Assembly (NCBI GenBank): GCA_964586355.1
Contig: CAZPGO010000043.1
Coordinates: forward strand, 1-32,000
DNA: 32,000 bases
Direction: 5' to 3'
Source of the DNA: an uncultured archaeon
GTDB lineage: Archaea > Iainarchaeota > Iainarchaeia > Iainarchaeales > CSSED10-239
Part shown: positions 3,901 to 29,948 of the stretch, one piece after another
How positions within the stretch are numbered: the first letter of the stretch is position 1
Layout: every line of letters begins with the position of its first letter
Made by a program: the position numbers and the translations under genes
Notes under the pieces: generated by a model
Databases searched by the model: none
What the model was told of the DNA's origin: nothing
Seen by the model: only the letters and a program-made list of their open reading frames with translations

Positions 3901-4413
3901 TTATTTGTTTTTTTTTGCTGTTTCTTTTATACTTGTTTTTTCTTTAACAGGTTCTTTGATCTTTTCTTCTGTTTTTGTCTTATAAGAATCAAGTCCATTT
4001 TTTAATATCTCTTTACACAAAAGATCTATATATTTTTGACCTTTAGCAGAGATGGTTCTTCCTTTTTTTTCTACTTTTGTAACTAGCTCTAAAGTTTCTA
4101 GATCATGCAGACAATCTCTTATGATCTTTCCACTTGCTTTTTTAAATTTCTCTGGTCTTACTCCTCTGTTTTTCTTACCACCAAAATAGGTTCTAAGCTT
4201 TTCAACAGTTACAAAACCATTAACATAAGATTTTCTTAAAATAGCAGCCATTCTCACATACCACCAATCAGGATCATGTGGAGCTCTTTCTCTTGAACAG
4301 CCTGTTTTTACATACATTGCATATTCAGGAATTTTTACTTTTTTATTGTTCTTTAAATCGTTTGCGATTTCTTTTATTAAAATATTTGCTGGTACATCGT
4401 GTACATTTGTCAA
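3901..4413 (-). CDS. rps19e: Ribosomal protein S19e
   Basis: VHDVPANILIKEIANDLK, PEYAMYVKTG, ERAPHDPDWWYVRMAAILRK and GGKKNRGVRPEKFKKASGKIIRDCLHDLE are S19e hallmarks. The start is TTG (4411-4413), supported by GAGGTGA 7 nt upstream. A short K/E tail is present. Confidence 0.9.
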   Translation of the reverse strand: MTNVHDVPANILIKEIANDLKNNKKVKIPEYAMYVKTGCSRERAPHDPDWWYVRMAAILRKSYVNGFVTVEKLRTYFGGKKNRGVRPEKFKKASGKIIRDCLHDLETLELVTKVEKKGRTISAKGQKYIDLLCKEILKNGLDSYKTKTEEKIKEPVKEKTSIKETAKKNK

Positions 4414-24954: not shown

Positions 24955-26325
24955 TTACTTATTTTTAGAAAATACAGAATAAATATCATTAATAAAATTA
25001 ACAACTTTTGTTTGAAGGTTTTCAGTACTTACAAAATCAACACCTTCCTTTTTAAATTCATTCATAACATCTGTAATTATTTCAGGATTATATTCTTGAG
25101 ACACTAAAAAGGATTCTAGTTGAGATTTTGTGTATTTTTTTGCATATGGTTTTAAAAATTCAAATAAGAATCTAATTTGTTTCATATATTTTTCATACTT
25201 CTCTTTCTCTTTTTTTGATTCTATTTTTAAATTAAAATTTTTTGGCAAAGTTAGATTTTCTGAAGAGATTATGTTATTTCCTTTATTTGAATTATCATCA
25301 TTTAAACGATTAATATTTAATTTTTTTTGCCTTTTTTCTAAAACATCTATTTTTTTATAGATCTCATTTATTTGACCATAAACTTCTTTTAAGGACAAAA
25401 ATTCGTCATGAATTTTTGATAAGAAAAGCTTAGTCATTTTTTCATTTGCTGTGCTTGGTAAATTTGATTTTTTATTAAAATCAACATTATCTTCTTTAAT
25501 TAGGTTAGTTAATATGCTTTCAGCAACTTGTTTACTAAAACCATTTTCTACTAATAGTTTTTTTATAAATTCTGAGTCTGTTTTTATTTTTAATAAATAT
25601 CTAATAGTGTTTTTTATGTTGGTTATATGTTCTTGTTGTTTTTTTGCTTTTTTTAATACTGCCATTCTTTCTTGATTAAGTAGTTTTATATCTTTTATAC
25701 CAAGCAAATTTAAATAAAAAGACTGAGGTAGTCTAATAATCAAAAAACCTTCAATAAAGAACAAACAAAAAATAACAAAAGCTATTGCAAAAGGTATAAG
25801 TGTTTCTTTTAAAAATAAAAAATTAGGTAAAAGTATTATTAAAAAATAAACACCAATAGATAATATAAAACCAAATATCCAATAGATATAACGAACAGTT
25901 CTTATTTTTTTTATATGTTTAATAATATTTTCAGCAGTCTCAAAATCCATCCCAATATATTCTACAAAATGTTTTATTGATTCTTTTGAGTATTTTTCTT
26001 TTATTATAAAAAAAATTAATTTTTTAATAGTTACAACTAATTTATTTATTTGTGCCTCATTATTTTCTGAGTCTACAAGGTCTTCTAAAGCATTTAATTT
26101 AACTTTATTTTTTTTTGCTAATAACAAAAGACCTATTTTTGGAATTTTGGAAATCAGACAACCTACAAAAAAAAAGAGAAAAATAATTATTAATGGCAAA
26201 ACTAATTCTAGATACCAAATCTCTTTAATATTTGAAAAAAAGGACACATAATGTACTAACAAATAAATAATTATGGAAAATATAAGACCAAATATCCAAT
26301 AAAATAGTTTTTTATTTATAGCCAT
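24955..26325 (-). CDS. Hypothetical membrane protein with internally duplicated 2-TM plus helical module
   Basis: AGGTGT SD. YWIFGLIFSIIIYLL...(2 TM)...KESIKHFVEYIGMDFETAENIIKHIKK is repeated as YWIFGFILSIGVYFL...(2 TM)...DSEFIKKLLVENGFSKQVAESILTNLIK. A third soluble copy is KSQLESFLVSQEYNPEIITDVMNEFKK. Confidence 0.62.
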   Translation of the reverse strand: MAINKKLFYWIFGLIFSIIIYLLVHYVSFFSNIKEIWYLELVLPLIIIFLFFFVGCLISKIPKIGLLLLAKKNKVKLNALEDLVDSENNEAQINKLVVTIKKLIFFIIKEKYSKESIKHFVEYIGMDFETAENIIKHIKKIRTVRYIYWIFGFILSIGVYFLIILLPNFLFLKETLIPFAIAFVIFCLFFIEGFLIIRLPQSFYLNLLGIKDIKLLNQERMAVLKKAKKQQEHITNIKNTIRYLLKIKTDSEFIKKLLVENGFSKQVAESILTNLIKEDNVDFNKKSNLPSTANEKMTKLFLSKIHDEFLSLKEVYGQINEIYKKIDVLEKRQKKLNINRLNDDNSNKGNNIISSENLTLPKNFNLKIESKKEKEKYEKYMKQIRFLFEFLKPYAKKYTKSQLESFLVSQEYNPEIITDVMNEFKKEGVDFVSTENLQTKVVNFINDIYSVFSKNK

Positions 26326-26405
26326 TAATACACCTGTGCTTTATTATTTAAGATTAATTAAATAGATAAACAAAACATATAAAAAACAATTTGTAACAAA
26401 AAAAA

Positions 26406-26480
26406 TGGAAGATGCAGGATTCGAACCTGCGACCCTTGGTGTATAAGACCAATGCTCTGACCAGACTGAGCTAAACTTCC
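26406..26480 (-). tRNA. tRNA-Ile (anticodon UAU)
   Basis: Reverse complement GGAAGTTTAGCTCAGTCTGGTCAGAGCATTGGTCTTATACACCAAGGGTCGCAGGTTCGAATCCTGCATCTTCCA. It has D-arm GCTC/GAGC, anticodon stem TTGGT/ACCAA with loop CTTATAC (TAT at 34-36), T-arm GCAGG/TTCGAAT/CCTGC and discriminator A. There is one U6-U67 mismatch in the acceptor stem. Confidence 0.85.
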
Positions 26481-26499
26481 AATATTTAAAATTGTCTCC

Positions 26500-26547: not shown

Positions 26548-26886
26548 CTATTCTTCAGAAACAAAATTATTTAAATTTACTGATAAATCAGCATCTGTTT
26601 CCTTAAAATCACCAAATCTGCCAATATTAAGTCTTACTGATTTTTTAAATTCTGAAGAAAATAGATTTTTGAAACTATATGTCTTATTTGTTTCTATTTT
26701 ATCTATGGTCTCATCCCAAAGAGTCAAATAAATTGTGCCAGTCTCATCACCTAATATAGCTTCACAAACATTGTGTTTTGTTTCATCTAGTTTTGAGATC
26801 ACTTCTCTTATAGCTGTTTTGTCTATAACTTTTGCTATTATGTCTATCTTCTTTTGGAATGGTTTTATTTTATCTATTTTTTCCAT
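26548..26886 (-). CDS. Single OB-fold ssDNA-binding protein (short RPA/SSB-like)
   Basis: The 112-aa protein has IDIIAKVIDKTAIREV...HNVCEAILGDETGTIYLTLWDETIDKIE, the pattern typical of archaeal RPA-type OB folds (..GDETG.I.LTLWD). Confidence 0.62.
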   Translation of the reverse strand: MEKIDKIKPFQKKIDIIAKVIDKTAIREVISKLDETKHNVCEAILGDETGTIYLTLWDETIDKIETNKTYSFKNLFSSEFKKSVRLNIGRFGDFKETDADLSVNLNNFVSEE

Positions 26887-26970: not shown

Positions 26971-28587
26971 TCACATATCAGCCATATCTTGAGGACCCAT
27001 TCTTGGAGCTCCTCTTCCTGACTGACCTGCGATTATATCGTCTATTCTTAAAATCAATTCTGCTACTTCTGTTGCTGAAACAATTGCTTGTGTTTTAACA
27101 TTTAATGGTTCTATAATGTTTTTGCTTTTCATATCTGCAATTGTACCATTAATAACATCTACACCAAATCCTCTGTTTTTAGGATCTTGATGTTTACTTC
27201 TTAAAGAAACAATAGTATCAATAGCATCTAAACCAGCACTTTCAGCTAATGTTTTTGGAATTATCTCTAAAACATCTGCAAAAGCCTCAATAGCTAATTG
27301 CTCTCTTCCACCAATAGTTTTTGCAAAGTTTTTTAATTTCAAAGCAACATCTATCTCTGAAGATCCACCAGCAGCTAAAAATTTACCTGATTTTAAAGAA
27401 GATATAACTGCACCAACAGCATCTGTTAATGTTCTATCTGCTTCAGAAAGTGTTTGTTCACTAGCTCCTCTTAATAGTATAGTTACATAATTTGGATTTG
27501 GACAACTTTCAACAAATAACATATCATCTCCAGATATTTTCTTTGAATAGACACGTTTTGCTGTGCCTAGATCTTTATCAGTAGCATCTTTTAATCTGTT
27601 TATAATTTTTGCTCCTGTTGCTTTTGCTAATCTTTCTATATCTGTTAATCTTACTCTTCTAACAGCAGTAACTCCTGCTTTTGCTAGGTAATGTTGTGCA
27701 AGATCATCTATTCCTTTTTGACAGATTAAAATATTGGCTCCTGTAGCAACTATCAAATCAACCATTTCTTTTAATTGTTCTTCTTCTTGATCAATAAATG
27801 CTTGTAATTGCTCTGGAGAAGTTATTTGTATTTTTGCTTCTGTTTCTGTTTCTTTTATCTCTAACGCAGTTCCTAACAATAATATTTTTGCGGAATCAAT
27901 ATCTCTTGGCATCTCTGAGTGAACAACTTCTTTATCAAGAACAATTCCATCTATTAATTTAGTGTCAGATAAATTCCCACCAATCTTTTGCTCTATTTTT
28001 ATTTGTTCTTTATCTAGCTCTTTGGAGTTTGATATTTTTAAGATAGCATCAACAACAATATTTGCTAAACTAGAACTATATTCTGCAGCTTTTCCTGTCA
28101 TTGATGTTGTTGCTATATCCAAAAGTGCTTTCTTATCACTAATGGATATGTTTTCTGAAATTTCTGTAAAGTAACCGCTTGCTTTTTCTGCAGCCATTTT
28201 ATATCCTTTTATTATAATTGATGGATGAATATTTTCATCTAAAAGATTTTCTGCTTTAGAAACTAGACCACCAGCAATTATTACTGCACTTGTTGTTCCA
28301 TCCCCTACCTCATCATCTTGATTTTTAGCAAGTTCTACAAGCATCTTTCCAATTGGGTGCTCTATAGCCATTTCTTTTAAGATTGTTGCCCCGTCATTAC
28401 TAATTGTAACATCTCCCATCTCGTTTACTAACATCTTATCCATGCCTCTAGGACCTAATGTTGATTTTACTGAATTACTTACTGCTTTTGCAACAAGTAT
28501 ATTTAATCTTTGTGCATCCTTGCCTTTATCTCTTCTGGTTCCTTCTGGTAAAAAGGCATTTGAATTTTGATTGTTTGAATTATTCAT
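26971..28587 (-). CDS. ths: Thermosome subunit (group II chaperonin)
   Basis: TLGPRGMDKMLV, the ATP-binding GDGTTSAVIIAG, VRRVRLTDIERLAKATGA and a C-terminal GGM-like tail. GGAGTGAT SD. Confidence 0.95.
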   Translation of the reverse strand: MNNSNNQNSNAFLPEGTRRDKGKDAQRLNILVAKAVSNSVKSTLGPRGMDKMLVNEMGDVTISNDGATILKEMAIEHPIGKMLVELAKNQDDEVGDGTTSAVIIAGGLVSKAENLLDENIHPSIIIKGYKMAAEKASGYFTEISENISISDKKALLDIATTSMTGKAAEYSSSLANIVVDAILKISNSKELDKEQIKIEQKIGGNLSDTKLIDGIVLDKEVVHSEMPRDIDSAKILLLGTALEIKETETEAKIQITSPEQLQAFIDQEEEQLKEMVDLIVATGANILICQKGIDDLAQHYLAKAGVTAVRRVRLTDIERLAKATGAKIINRLKDATDKDLGTAKRVYSKKISGDDMLFVESCPNPNYVTILLRGASEQTLSEADRTLTDAVGAVISSLKSGKFLAAGGSSEIDVALKLKNFAKTIGGREQLAIEAFADVLEIIPKTLAESAGLDAIDTIVSLRSKHQDPKNRGFGVDVINGTIADMKSKNIIEPLNVKTQAIVSATEVAELILRIDDIIAGQSGRGAPRMGPQDMADM

Positions 28588-28623
28588 TTAAATCACTCCT
28601 TTTATATACAATAATAGAAATTT

Positions 28624-28884
28624 TTAAAGCTGACCTTGTTTTTTTTTAAGTTTTAAAAATTTACTCTCAAATATTTCTTTGTTATCATAATCTAAAAAAA
28701 ATCTATTATTTACTAGTTCTAGATCAAAAAACCCTGTTTTGTATTTATTTTCTAGACCTTTTTTAAATTCATTAAATTCCTTGTTTTTATTTAATAATAT
28801 TTTTTCATCTAGATCTAAAAAAGGTTTCATTTCTTGTTTTAATTTTAAAAGATATTTTTCTGGGTAAAATAAATCATTTGACAT
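28624..28884 (-). CDS. Hypothetical protein
   Basis: An 86-aa ORF with an ATG preceded by AAGGTTA, lying 14 nt downstream of the histone-fold gene. I recognise no family. Confidence 0.42.
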   Translation of the reverse strand: MSNDLFYPEKYLLKLKQEMKPFLDLDEKILLNKNKEFNEFKKGLENKYKTGFFDLELVNNRFFLDYDNKEIFESKFLKLKKKQGQL

Positions 28885-28898
28885 AATAATAACCTTTT

Positions 28899-29306
28899 TT
28901 ACTTATGGAATTTTCTTTCAACATCGTCTATTAAAATATCACATTCTGCTTTTATTTTTTCTAGATTCTTAATTATTCTTATTTTTTCTAATTCGATTGT
29001 TTGAATATTTTCAAAAGTTTCTATAGCTTGTTTAAACATTCCATAGTCAACATAACTATATTCATAGCTATTCATTTTTTTACAAATTGTTTCTACAATT
29101 TGACCTAAAAACAAGTTCATTTCTTTTTTTACTATTCCTTTTATTTGCTTATGAGGATCTAAACTTTTTCTCATTAGTCTTACAACCGTTGCATTAGGGA
29201 AAGGCAATTTTTCATCATCTAATTCTTCTTCTTCACTATCTTCTAATACCTCGTCTAAGTCTTCTCCTTCTAATTCTGCTTTTGTTTTATCTATTTCATC
29301 AGTCAT
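28899..29306 (-). CDS. Histone-fold (CBF/NF-Y/archaeal histone family) protein with acidic N-terminal tail
   Basis: LPFPNATVVRLMRKSLDPHKQIKGIVKKEMNLFLGQIVETICKKMN...YVDYGMFKQAIE fits the histone-fold pattern LP.A.V.R.M...I.......F....I......V....F..A. The 30-aa N-terminal tail is D/E-rich. AGAGGTAA SD. Confidence 0.62.
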   Translation of the reverse strand: MTDEIDKTKAELEGEDLDEVLEDSEEEELDDEKLPFPNATVVRLMRKSLDPHKQIKGIVKKEMNLFLGQIVETICKKMNSYEYSYVDYGMFKQAIETFENIQTIELEKIRIIKNLEKIKAECDILIDDVERKFHK

Positions 29307-29443
29307 ATAAATTACCTCTTTTTTATAAAAATAGTTATAATATTCTATAATATATATAGGTATAGAAGGCTTTAAATATGTATTTTTTAAGAATTTTTTC
29401 CTTAAAAAACTGATAAAAATAGCTACTTAAAATTAGTTAATTT

Positions 29444-29475
29444 AAAATAAATAAAAAATAAAAAAAATAAAAAAA
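29444..29475 (-). terminator. Oligo-T tracts (minus strand) downstream of the acidic micro-ORFs
   Basis: The plus strand reads AAAATAAATAAAAAATAAAAAAAATAAAAAAAG, giving several T5-T8 runs on the coding strand 20-50 nt after the stop at 29498. Archaeal terminators are oligo-T, but the AT-rich background lowers specificity. Confidence 0.3.
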
Positions 29476-29497: not shown

Positions 29498-29596
29498 TTA
29501 TTCGTCTTCTTCATCATCATATTCTTCATCATCATAATCGAAGTCTTCTTCTTCTTCATCACTATATGCCACATAATAGTTTTTATCTAAACTCAT
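29498..29596 (-). CDS. Hyperacidic 32-aa micro-protein
   Basis: Own translation: MSLDKNYYVAYSDEEEEDFDYDDEEYDDEEDE*, with 18 acidic residues and 1 basic. GGGTGAG SD 4 nt upstream of the ATG. It is below the ORF-track size cutoff. Confidence 0.42.
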   Translation of the reverse strand: MSLDKNYYVAYSDEEEEDFDYDDEEYDDEEDE

Positions 29597-29613
29597 ATGT
29601 CTCACCCTTTTTT

Positions 29614-29778
29614 TTATTCATCACTGTCTGAGTCGATCTCATCAAAGTCGTAGTCGTCATCATTTTCGAAATCTCTGTCTATGTCATTAATGTTATCGTC
29701 TTCAACAACTTTTTCATCGCCGTCGTAATCATAGTCATCTAAGTTATAATCGTCTGACAACTGGTATATATTTTTCAT
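29614..29778 (-). CDS. Hyperacidic 54-aa micro-protein
   Basis: Own translation: MKNIYQLSDDYNLDDYDYDGDEKVVEDDNINDIDRDFENDDDYDFDEIDSDSDE*, with 25 acidic residues and 3 basic. GAGGAG SD 4 nt upstream of the ATG. It is followed 17 nt later by the 32-aa ORF. Confidence 0.5.
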   Translation of the reverse strand: MKNIYQLSDDYNLDDYDYDGDEKVVEDDNINDIDRDFENDDDYDFDEIDSDSDE

Positions 29779-29948
29779 CTAACTCCTCACAATTTATTTT
29801 TTAGTTGCTATAAATAATTTGTTATGGTACCATAATATTTAAAAATATGTACTAAAACTCAAATTACAAGATATATTTATATATGTTTTGTTGTCTTTAA
29901 AAAACAGATTTTAAAAATAGATTGCAGCAAATATATGTATGATCTACT

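Follow-up and report, generated by a model that had tools for sequence, protein, structure and literature searches.

What are two very short and extremely acidic open reading frames (ORFs) doing upstream of a histone gene in an archaeon? This question is raised by a locus in the 32,000-nucleotide stretch of DNA that was analyzed here (the window), which spans positions 1 to 32,000 of contig CAZPGO010000043.1 (assembly GCA_964586355.1) and comes from an uncultured member of the Iainarchaeota. The two ORFs, here named orfA and orfB, lie in tandem on the minus strand. An earlier examination of the letters of the window, made without database searches (the sequence-only reading), had singled them out as possible DNA mimics, as chaperones or antagonists of histones, or as cation-binding peptides. 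Comparison with related genomes led us to judge both ORFs to be genuine genes, of which orfA belongs to a narrow protein family. As to their function, we tentatively favor peptides that would act in trans on the histone encoded next to them.

Coding evidence and layout of orfA and orfB

The first ORF, orfA (29614..29778, minus strand; ATG at 29778, TAA at 29614), comprises 54 codons and encodes the peptide MKNIYQLSDDYNLDDYDYDGDEKVVEDDNINDIDRDFENDDDYDFDEIDSDSDE, which contains 25 Asp or Glu (D/E) residues and 3 Lys or Arg (K/R) residues and has a net charge of about -22. It is followed by orfB (29498..29596, minus strand; ATG at 29596, TAA at 29498), whose 32 codons encode MSLDKNYYVAYSDEEEEDFDYDDEEYDDEEDE, with 18 D/E residues, a single Lys, and a net charge of about -17. 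Between the orfA stop codon and the orfB ATG lie 17 nt. The orfB product begins with an N-terminal NYYVAY segment and continues in a D/E/F/Y repeat tail, and the window copy of the gene carries a 15-nt tandem repeat of two units. The aromatic residues Tyr, Phe, and Trp make up 13 to 22% of the orfA/orfB peptides. With D/E fractions of 0.56 and 0.46, the two ORFs rank first and second among the 111 ATG-initiated ORFs of at least 25 amino acids (aa) in the window, followed in third place by the histone gene with 0.24. On recount, the coordinates, codon counts, charged-residue counts, and spacing given by the sequence-only reading were all exact.

Orthologues were found in about 30 related Iainarchaeota (Forterrea-like) loci, the first set of which was retrieved via the 135-aa histone neighbor, and the reading frame is intact in all of them. 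Comparison of orfA with its counterparts in loci L009 and L017 revealed 36 nucleotide differences, distributed over the first, second, and third codon positions as 7, 3, and 26 (chi-square p=3e-6), and zero indels, as against 7 to 30 gap positions in the flanking intergenic DNA. A third-position bias was also observed for four further orthologue pairs, and the dN/dS of orfA ranged from 0.02 to 0.22 (Nei-Gojobori method, with synonymous sites often saturated). Substitutions in orfB were likewise biased toward the third position (e.g., 3, 4, and 18; p=2e-4), at a dN/dS of 0.15 to 0.76. This second ORF occurs only in the subclade in which orfA has the "DYDGDE" form. Its start, the GGTGA core of its Shine-Dalgarno (SD) sequence, and the N-terminal segment MYVINNDxxGQxYK (NYYVAY in the subclade of the window) are kept; between close relatives its acidic tail is longer or shorter by entire repeat units, and the orthologues measure 26 to 56 aa.

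Because the frame is kept, substitutions concentrate in third positions, and dN/dS is below 1, we judge orfA and orfB to be genuine protein-coding genes under purifying selection. These were also the signals to which the sequence-only reading had pointed as informative, together with synteny, and the ORFs indeed stay beside the histone gene across the clade; the disruption in relatives that it had named as contrary evidence was not found among the orthologues. ORFs that fall under common length cut-offs can thus rank among the better-conserved genes of a locus.

Each ORF is preceded by an SD-like motif that ends 4 nt before its ATG. For orfA this is GAGGAG (29783..29788, minus strand), which is kept in loci L007, L008, and L009, and for orfB it is GGGTGAG (29601..29607, minus strand), which lies inside the 17-nt spacer and contains the GGTGA core; a GGTGA or AGGTG core precedes orfB in loci L009 and L011, too. 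Matches to the anti-SD sequence of 4 to 5 nt are found at most long ORFs of the window and are comparable, in agreement with the earlier remark that both sites resemble those of bona fide genes. An A/T box, TTTTTAAATA (29836..29846, minus strand), was identified ~60 nt upstream of the orfA start codon; its columns are invariant in an upstream alignment of eight loci from two subclades. It is a candidate archaeal TATA box and may serve as the promoter of an orfA-orfB transcript.

The oligo-T runs noticed earlier behind the second stop codon form a cluster of T7, T8, and T6 (29443..29475, minus strand; 23 to 45 nt past the orfB stop), which is a candidate archaeal terminator. In nearly all related loci, runs of at least five T are found behind the final acidic ORF, and in the window similar clusters end the thermosome and AspRS genes, not the histone gene or an 86-aa gene behind it. 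Because of these T runs and the gaps before the histone gene, orfA and orfB likely form a transcription unit of their own, separate from a second one that would comprise the histone, 86-aa, and thermosome genes, with the T cluster as the candidate boundary between the two. Judging from the sequence, we infer that both ORFs are transcribed and translated.

The codon usage noted by the sequence-only reading was reproduced for the window: orfA uses GAC in 11 of 20 cases, compared to 16% in the other window genes (Fisher p=1.6e-4), and TAC in 3 of 5, compared to 12% (p=0.018). This preference for GAC/TAC over GAT/TAT is confined to orfA of the window genome and of its closest relative, L007, and is not seen in most orthologues. 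Since the thermosome gene also has no orfA-like GAC/TAC enrichment, codon bias was dropped both as a signal of expression and as family-level evidence. The description of the two ORFs as unannotated holds for the ORF track used at the time only; public gene callers had called both as genes on identical contigs (JGI, Logan; several metagenomes), orfB as a 32-aa gene, and one orthologue carries the NCBI label "hypothetical protein." A noncoding RNA (ncRNA) in place of orfA and orfB was considered and rejected, as an Rfam scan of the window returned three tRNAs and no other ncRNA. A scan for bacterial-type promoters and terminators has no information value for an archaeon.

The orfA family and its predicted disorder

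A single-sequence search with orfA against 5.8 billion proteins returned one close relative only, and the family came to light via synteny and, following that, a profile search. In an alignment of 18 orfA orthologues, which are 30 to 85% identical to the window protein, three elements were recognized: an invariant core, D-Y-x-x-x-[DE]-[FY]-D-Y-D (the family motif DYxxx[DE][FY]DYD); an acidic and aromatic element, [DE][DE][FWY][DE]; and an acidic, Ser/Asp-containing C terminus that often ends in Tyr. The residues Y11, D17, Y18, D19, and D21 are invariant in this alignment, and the peptide motifs are conserved to roughly 30 to 50% identity. The D/E content of the acidic ORFs in the family loci amounts to 46 to 63%. 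Trp is present in many orthologues, for example in DDEWDDD, which is found in Forterrea-type orfA members, and in EDDWDEDVDDDWDD.

The profile search of the same 5.8 billion proteins yielded 20 clusters, all of 50 to 98 aa and plainly belonging to the orfA family. When 1.84 billion representatives were searched exhaustively with HMMER, 7 clusters were recovered, which likewise consisted of orfA family members only. No relative was found among the sequence profiles of Pfam, PHROGs, NCBIfam, and PDB. A Pfam scan of the 18 family members gave nothing at E<=0.05, and the sole marginal PDB match was a calcium-binding calmyrin homologue with a nonsignificant E=3.6. In metagenomes, a scan with protein alignment produced 600 pattern matches, none of which was confirmed by tblastn, probably due to low-complexity filtering. 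It was replaced by a scan with a degenerate DNA pattern of the motif that produced 80 loci, including 5 true family members; most others were chance Asp/Tyr repeats. No description of the family was found in the literature searched. As judged from these comparisons, the orfA family is narrow, new, and lineage-specific to Forterrea-like Iainarchaeota, a lineage of the DPANN archaea.

An AlphaFold2 model of the orfA product, based on the family alignment and computed like all models in this work as a single chain, had a mean predicted local distance difference test (pLDDT) score of 60.8 and a predicted template modeling (pTM) score of 0.14. It was essentially without secondary structure, with one 3-residue helical turn, and the product is predicted to be intrinsically disordered. 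The N termini of the two peptides (FIITEDLKLVKL versus YVITNDLEGQVLKI) had prompted the idea that orfA and orfB are paralogues, which is not claimed here in view of the results of hhalign (a probability of 5.8%) and BLASTP (E=19).

Two further acidic sequences came up in the course of the searches. In L033 (3342-3784, plus strand), an orfA-type motif, SLDDFDYDGN...EDYEVDYDADGVDVEF, stands behind a long, Lys/Ser-rich basic repeat that is partly N-masked, and it may represent a fusion of a basic segment with the acidic motif. A bacterial contig of 38% G+C (L075, 3320-3448, plus strand; also L076) harbors a 42-aa ORF, MSDDYDYDDSEYDYDEENESEEYEDYTPIEDEDTNLADEDDY, of very similar composition with an "EYTP"-like element. 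There is no histone nearby, and the contig carries genes for a RecD-like helicase and a cytochrome bd oxidase; the acidic ORF could be a case of convergence or chance.

The predicted coiled-coil histone and its linkage to orfA

The gene that follows orfB (28899..29306, minus strand) encodes the 135-aa protein, a predicted coiled-coil (CC) histone with an acidic N-terminal tail (residues 1 to 33), a histone fold, and a long C-terminal helix. Its match to the Pfam family CBFD_NFYB_HMF is weak and below the gathering score (E=0.013), and the same family is matched by 17 of 19 relatives, again below the gathering score (best E=0.0015). The AlphaFold2 model, with a mean pLDDT of only 65.6, shows helices at residues 40 to 48, 55 to 80, and 85 to 133, a layout that fits the histone fold. 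The continuous helix 85-133 belongs to a highly conserved region and reaches a pLDDT of 87 to 94 in its distal part. The N-terminal tail holds 18 D/E and 3 K/R residues (net charge -15) and has a pLDDT of <50. A Foldseek search of the monomer against PDB gave no meaningful match, and a PDB sequence profile search of the protein returned no histone. Relatives are named "histone H3/H4" at JGI, and homologues, at 41 to 97% identity, were found in Iainarchaeota, Methanofastidiosum, Methanobrevibacter, and Woesearchaeota. The relatives include proteins from metagenome-assembled genomes of "Candidatus ainarchaeum," Iainarchaeota, and Diapherotrites and from the complete genome of Ca. Forterrea multitransposorum.

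CC histones have been reported in Iainarchaeota, Methanobacteriota, Methanobacteriota_B, and other DPANN archaea and are predicted to tetramerize via their C-terminal helix, and for the CC histone HMfC, DNA bridging was demonstrated (Schwab et al. 2024, PMC11390915). Strongly negative tails are common among them and, as the same authors suggest, may cover the DNA-binding face formed by helix alpha1 (PMC11390915). The window protein has a LPFPNATVVRLMRK-type alpha1, and its conserved residues R43, R46, K56, and K60 follow the +3, +13, and +17 spacing of the published R32, K35, R45, and K49. By sequence and model, the 135-aa protein matches the published DNA-bridging CC histones, which agrees with the earlier description of a histone-fold gene with an acidic tail.

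The cis acidic tails of CC histones are nearly free of aromatic residues (13 of 3,263 residues), and a search for Rosetta-stone fusions detected the aromatic-acidic tail motif in 0 of 87 CC-histone relatives. The C-terminal tails of some CC histones elsewhere, for example FEEEDEDEMF, resemble the free peptides in composition. Acidic and aromatic C-terminal tails, SIFEEEDEDEMF and ...DSIADFSIPEEKEE, were seen in the CC histones of L055 (Woesearchaeota) and L051 to L054 (Methanobrevibacter), encoded by ORFs at about position 4001. In L036 (5203-5361, plus strand), the C-terminal end of the CC histone (...EKIKADCDSLARDVDRKFEV) occurs a second time, inside another ORF ~0.9 kb downstream of the intact gene, which looks like a partial histone duplication.

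We analyzed how closely the acidic ORFs are linked to this gene. In all clade loci with a histone at least ~68% identical to that of the window, the histone gene is preceded on its strand by a small, hyperacidic ORF, and in every locus with enough sequence the acidic family gene lies 100 to 1300 nt upstream of the histone gene in the same orientation. The linkage was retested on loci ascertained without using the histone. The members from the profile search were located upstream of this histone-thermosome pair in 3 of 3 cases, and those from the DNA-pattern scan with enough downstream DNA had the histone gene 433 to 1128 nt downstream on the same strand in 4 of 4 cases, so that the linkage held in 7 of 7 independently found loci. 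The upstream neighbors vary by subclade, with an RsmB-type methyltransferase in some and HIT/GatB in others, and the block of orfA, histone, thermosome, and single-stranded DNA-binding protein (SSB) genes is retained although these neighbors differ. In more distant Iainarchaeota the histone gene is found in other contexts, and on the loci compared the acidic family is a lineage-specific addition.

Within the block, the histone, 86-aa, and thermosome genes (26971-29306, minus strand) are separated by gaps of only 15 and 36 nt, and no T runs occur before T7/T9 behind the thermosome gene, which suggests that the histone is cotranscribed with the thermosome (chaperonin) gene. In L009 (2359-2919, plus strand) and also in L016 and L017, a 186-aa multi-pass membrane protein without a Pfam match is encoded between orfB and the histone gene.

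The window as a whole has a G+C content of ~26% and codes for the thermosome, tRNA synthetases, an RsmB/F-type methyltransferase, and an SSB-like protein with an oligonucleotide/oligosaccharide-binding (OB) fold. The gene of the latter (26548-26886; PF21473, E=3.7e-11) is part of the block with orfA in most clade members. The block is closed by a 456-aa ORF (24955-26325, minus strand) without a convincing Pfam match, which evolves quickly, at 24 to 37% identity across the clade, in loci where the thermosome is 67 to 90% identical. Between the positions of these two genes, a tRNA-Ile gene with the anticodon TAT (UAU) was called by ARAGORN (26405-26481, minus strand) and confirmed as a tRNA by Rfam. 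A UAU-anticodon tRNA-Ile is an unusual way of reading AUA codons in archaea.

Candidate partners and known acidic systems

Because the 135-aa neighbor resembles DNA-bridging CC histones with tails proposed to occlude alpha1, the histone is a plausible target of the peptides. Our favored explanation, to which we commit only tentatively, is that orfA and orfB encode trans-acting polyanionic peptides that use aromatic anchors on the basic DNA-binding face of this histone. The two ORFs would be transcribed together from their own TATA-type promoter, with transcription ending at the oligo-T runs, and each would be translated from its own SD site. The products would be disordered polyanions of 54 and 32 aa in which Tyr and Phe break the runs of Asp and Glu. 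In trans, they would act on the alpha1 face (R43, R46, K56, and K60), with Asp and Glu covering the basic residues and the Tyr/Phe anchors reinforcing electrostatic binding. They might then act as competitors of DNA or hold on to histone off the DNA, thereby tuning DNA bridging. The binding of the peptides, the identity of their target, and the effect on bridging are steps that we infer. The chromatin-related or DNA-mimic role raised by the sequence-only reading, with conserved ORFs and a CC-histone neighbor, remains a reasonable and testable idea.

Several observations weigh against a histone-directed role. The presumed link to the histone comes from gene neighborhood within a single clade of related genomes; for the CC histones of more distant Iainarchaeota, Methanofastidiosum, Methanobrevibacter, and a Woesearchaeote, neither an acidic ORF nor the motif was found within 4 kb. 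In several genomes the acidic ORF is separated from the histone gene by one or two unrelated genes, and by their T runs and gaps of 100 to 1000 nt the acidic ORFs seemingly form a transcription unit apart from that of the histone. The thermosome gene and the SSB-like OB-fold gene belong to the conserved block as well and are linked to orfA as well as the histone gene is. Furthermore, the folded part of the histone has a net charge of only about +3, and the protein has an acidic tail of its own, so that the need for a polyanion supplied in trans is not obvious.

It is unlikely, in our estimate, that the disordered polyanions are aimed at a different basic or nucleic-acid-binding protein, such as an SSB-like OB fold (in the manner of DSS1), a ribosomal protein, or another chromatin protein. 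The size, charge, disorder, and conserved aromatic residues of the family, with Trp in many orthologues, recall the eukaryotic DSS1, which PMC7641332 presents as a small, acidic mimic of DNA that partners BRCA2. The SSB-like gene shares the conserved block with orfA in most clade members, and the SSB-like protein of the window has only a very short acidic C terminus. On the other hand, 0 of 18 family members match any Pfam profile at E<=0.05, DSS1_SEM1 included, and the exhaustive profile search returned the orfA family alone, with no eukaryotic relatives. Moreover, the SSB gene is ~2.5 kb away from orfA, the nearest conserved neighbor of which is the histone gene.

Polyanions without a specific partner, serving as a buffer or store of cations (Ca2+, Mg2+, Fe, or polyamines) or as solubilizing, anti-aggregation "shield" peptides, appear quite improbable. 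Such a role would suit the extreme D/E content of 46 to 63% and the thermosome gene in the adjacent operon, and the free change in the length of the orfB tail between close relatives is what would be expected if bulk charge counts. Specific aromatic and acidic positions of orfA are nevertheless invariant and under strong purifying selection (Y11, D17, Y18, D19, and D21), and because of this a specific interface is favored over bulk charge. A dedicated calcium site, one form of the cation-binding peptide suggested earlier, is not borne out by the family. The window protein and its subclade do have a DxDxDG-like loop whose position 12 is Glu (D15-Y-D-Y-D-G ... E26), and the nonsignificant calmyrin match mentioned above would fit, too, but the loop Gly and the position-12 Glu are replaced in Forterrea-type members (FDYDEDPKKKK), and no EF-hand Pfam match was obtained.

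We regard it as very improbable that the ORFs are nonfunctional, either as chance ORFs in a GA-rich spacer or as leader ORFs whose translation regulates the histone operon. They are short and of low complexity, orfB is unstable in length and contains a tandem repeat, and both lie upstream of the histone-thermosome operon. Against this stand the conserved peptide motifs, a dN/dS well below 1 with third-position bias, and the intact frame in all orthologues; a leader function is further opposed by the candidate oligo-T terminators between the ORFs and the histone gene and by the unrelated genes inserted before the histone gene in some genomes. Hardly any credence is due to Ocr- or ArdA-type DNA mimics with an anti-restriction or anti-CRISPR role on a mobile element, a resemblance drawn by the sequence-only reading to which composition alone (small, very acidic) would point, because the locus belongs to the core chromosome and keeps its synteny throughout the clade, among housekeeping genes for an RsmB-type methyltransferase, thermosome, SSB, and tRNA synthetase, and in addition no PHROGs, Pfam, NCBIfam, or PDB relatives were found and the model is disordered rather than that of a folded, DNA-shaped protein. 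The probability left over falls to mechanisms beyond those weighed here.

Histone chaperones are seen as eukaryotic innovations, no archaeal homologues have been identified, and dedicated regulators of histones are generally taken to be missing from archaea, too (PMC7990501; bioRxiv 10.1101/2021.11.30.470311). A more far-reaching version of the histone-directed role, which we consider somewhat doubtful, would make orfA and orfB the first histone-directed acidic partners known from archaea, free-standing and disordered "tails in trans" acting as chaperones or antagonists of a DNA-bridging CC histone through aromatic anchors and electrostatic cover of its DNA-binding face, with chaperone-like histone control having arisen independently in DPANN archaea. 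Should the peptides prove to bind the histone and modulate it, this would amount to an independent archaeal invention of histone control by acidic intrinsically disordered regions. If their partner is another protein, they would still constitute a new family of strongly selected, disordered microproteins in genome-reduced DPANN archaea. The experimental entry is cheap, as peptides of 32 to 54 aa can be synthesized and a DNA-bridging assay exists for one CC histone.

Among known acidic systems, DSS1/Sem1 is a disordered, acidic protein of ~70 aa with conserved Trp/Phe residues that binds OB folds or PCI proteins and mimics single-stranded DNA. The orfA product comes close to it in size, charge, predicted disorder, and the conservation of aromatic residues, and the conserved block contains a gene for an OB-fold SSB. 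Unlike DSS1/Sem1, no orfA family member matches the DSS1_SEM1 profile (PF05160): the Pfam scan of the 18 members gave no such match at E<=10, and the exhaustive profile search led to the family itself only. By these comparisons, orfA and orfB belong neither to DSS1/Sem1, Ocr/ArdA, or EF-hand nor to another profiled family; at most, they would resemble acidic disordered histone chaperones or DNA mimics in their mode of action.

The Neisseria proteins DMP12 and DMP19 are small and acidic and block the DNA-binding site of HU (PMC3643605, PMC5722371). The orfA and orfB products are also small and acidic, and their proposed target would likewise be a chromosome-architecture protein. In contrast to these bacterial proteins, which are folded and display a DNA-like charge pattern, they are archaeal, predicted to be disordered, and unrelated in sequence. 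With the cis tails of CC histones they share a highly negative charge and predicted disorder, and they differ from them in being rich in aromatic residues and encoded by separate genes.

The acidic disordered domain of APLF uses aromatic anchors to bind the DNA-interaction surface of a histone dimer and stops nonspecific histone-DNA complexes (PMC6101569). Like APLF, Nap1's C-terminal acidic domain, the Spt16/Pob3 tails, YL1, and ANP32E, the orfA and orfB products are acidic, spaced by aromatic residues, and predicted to be disordered, and they are encoded near a histone gene. Acidic stretches with aromatic anchors and predicted disorder are both seen in the orfA family, the motif Tyr and adjoining Asp of which are invariant. 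Unlike these domains of eukaryotic chaperones, to which they have no sequence homology, the archaeal peptides are free-standing, at 30 to 77 aa, and whereas the eukaryotic partner is H2A-H2B or H3-H4, the putative partner here would be a homo-oligomeric archaeal CC histone. What is new is the family itself; its plausible role would follow a known physical principle.

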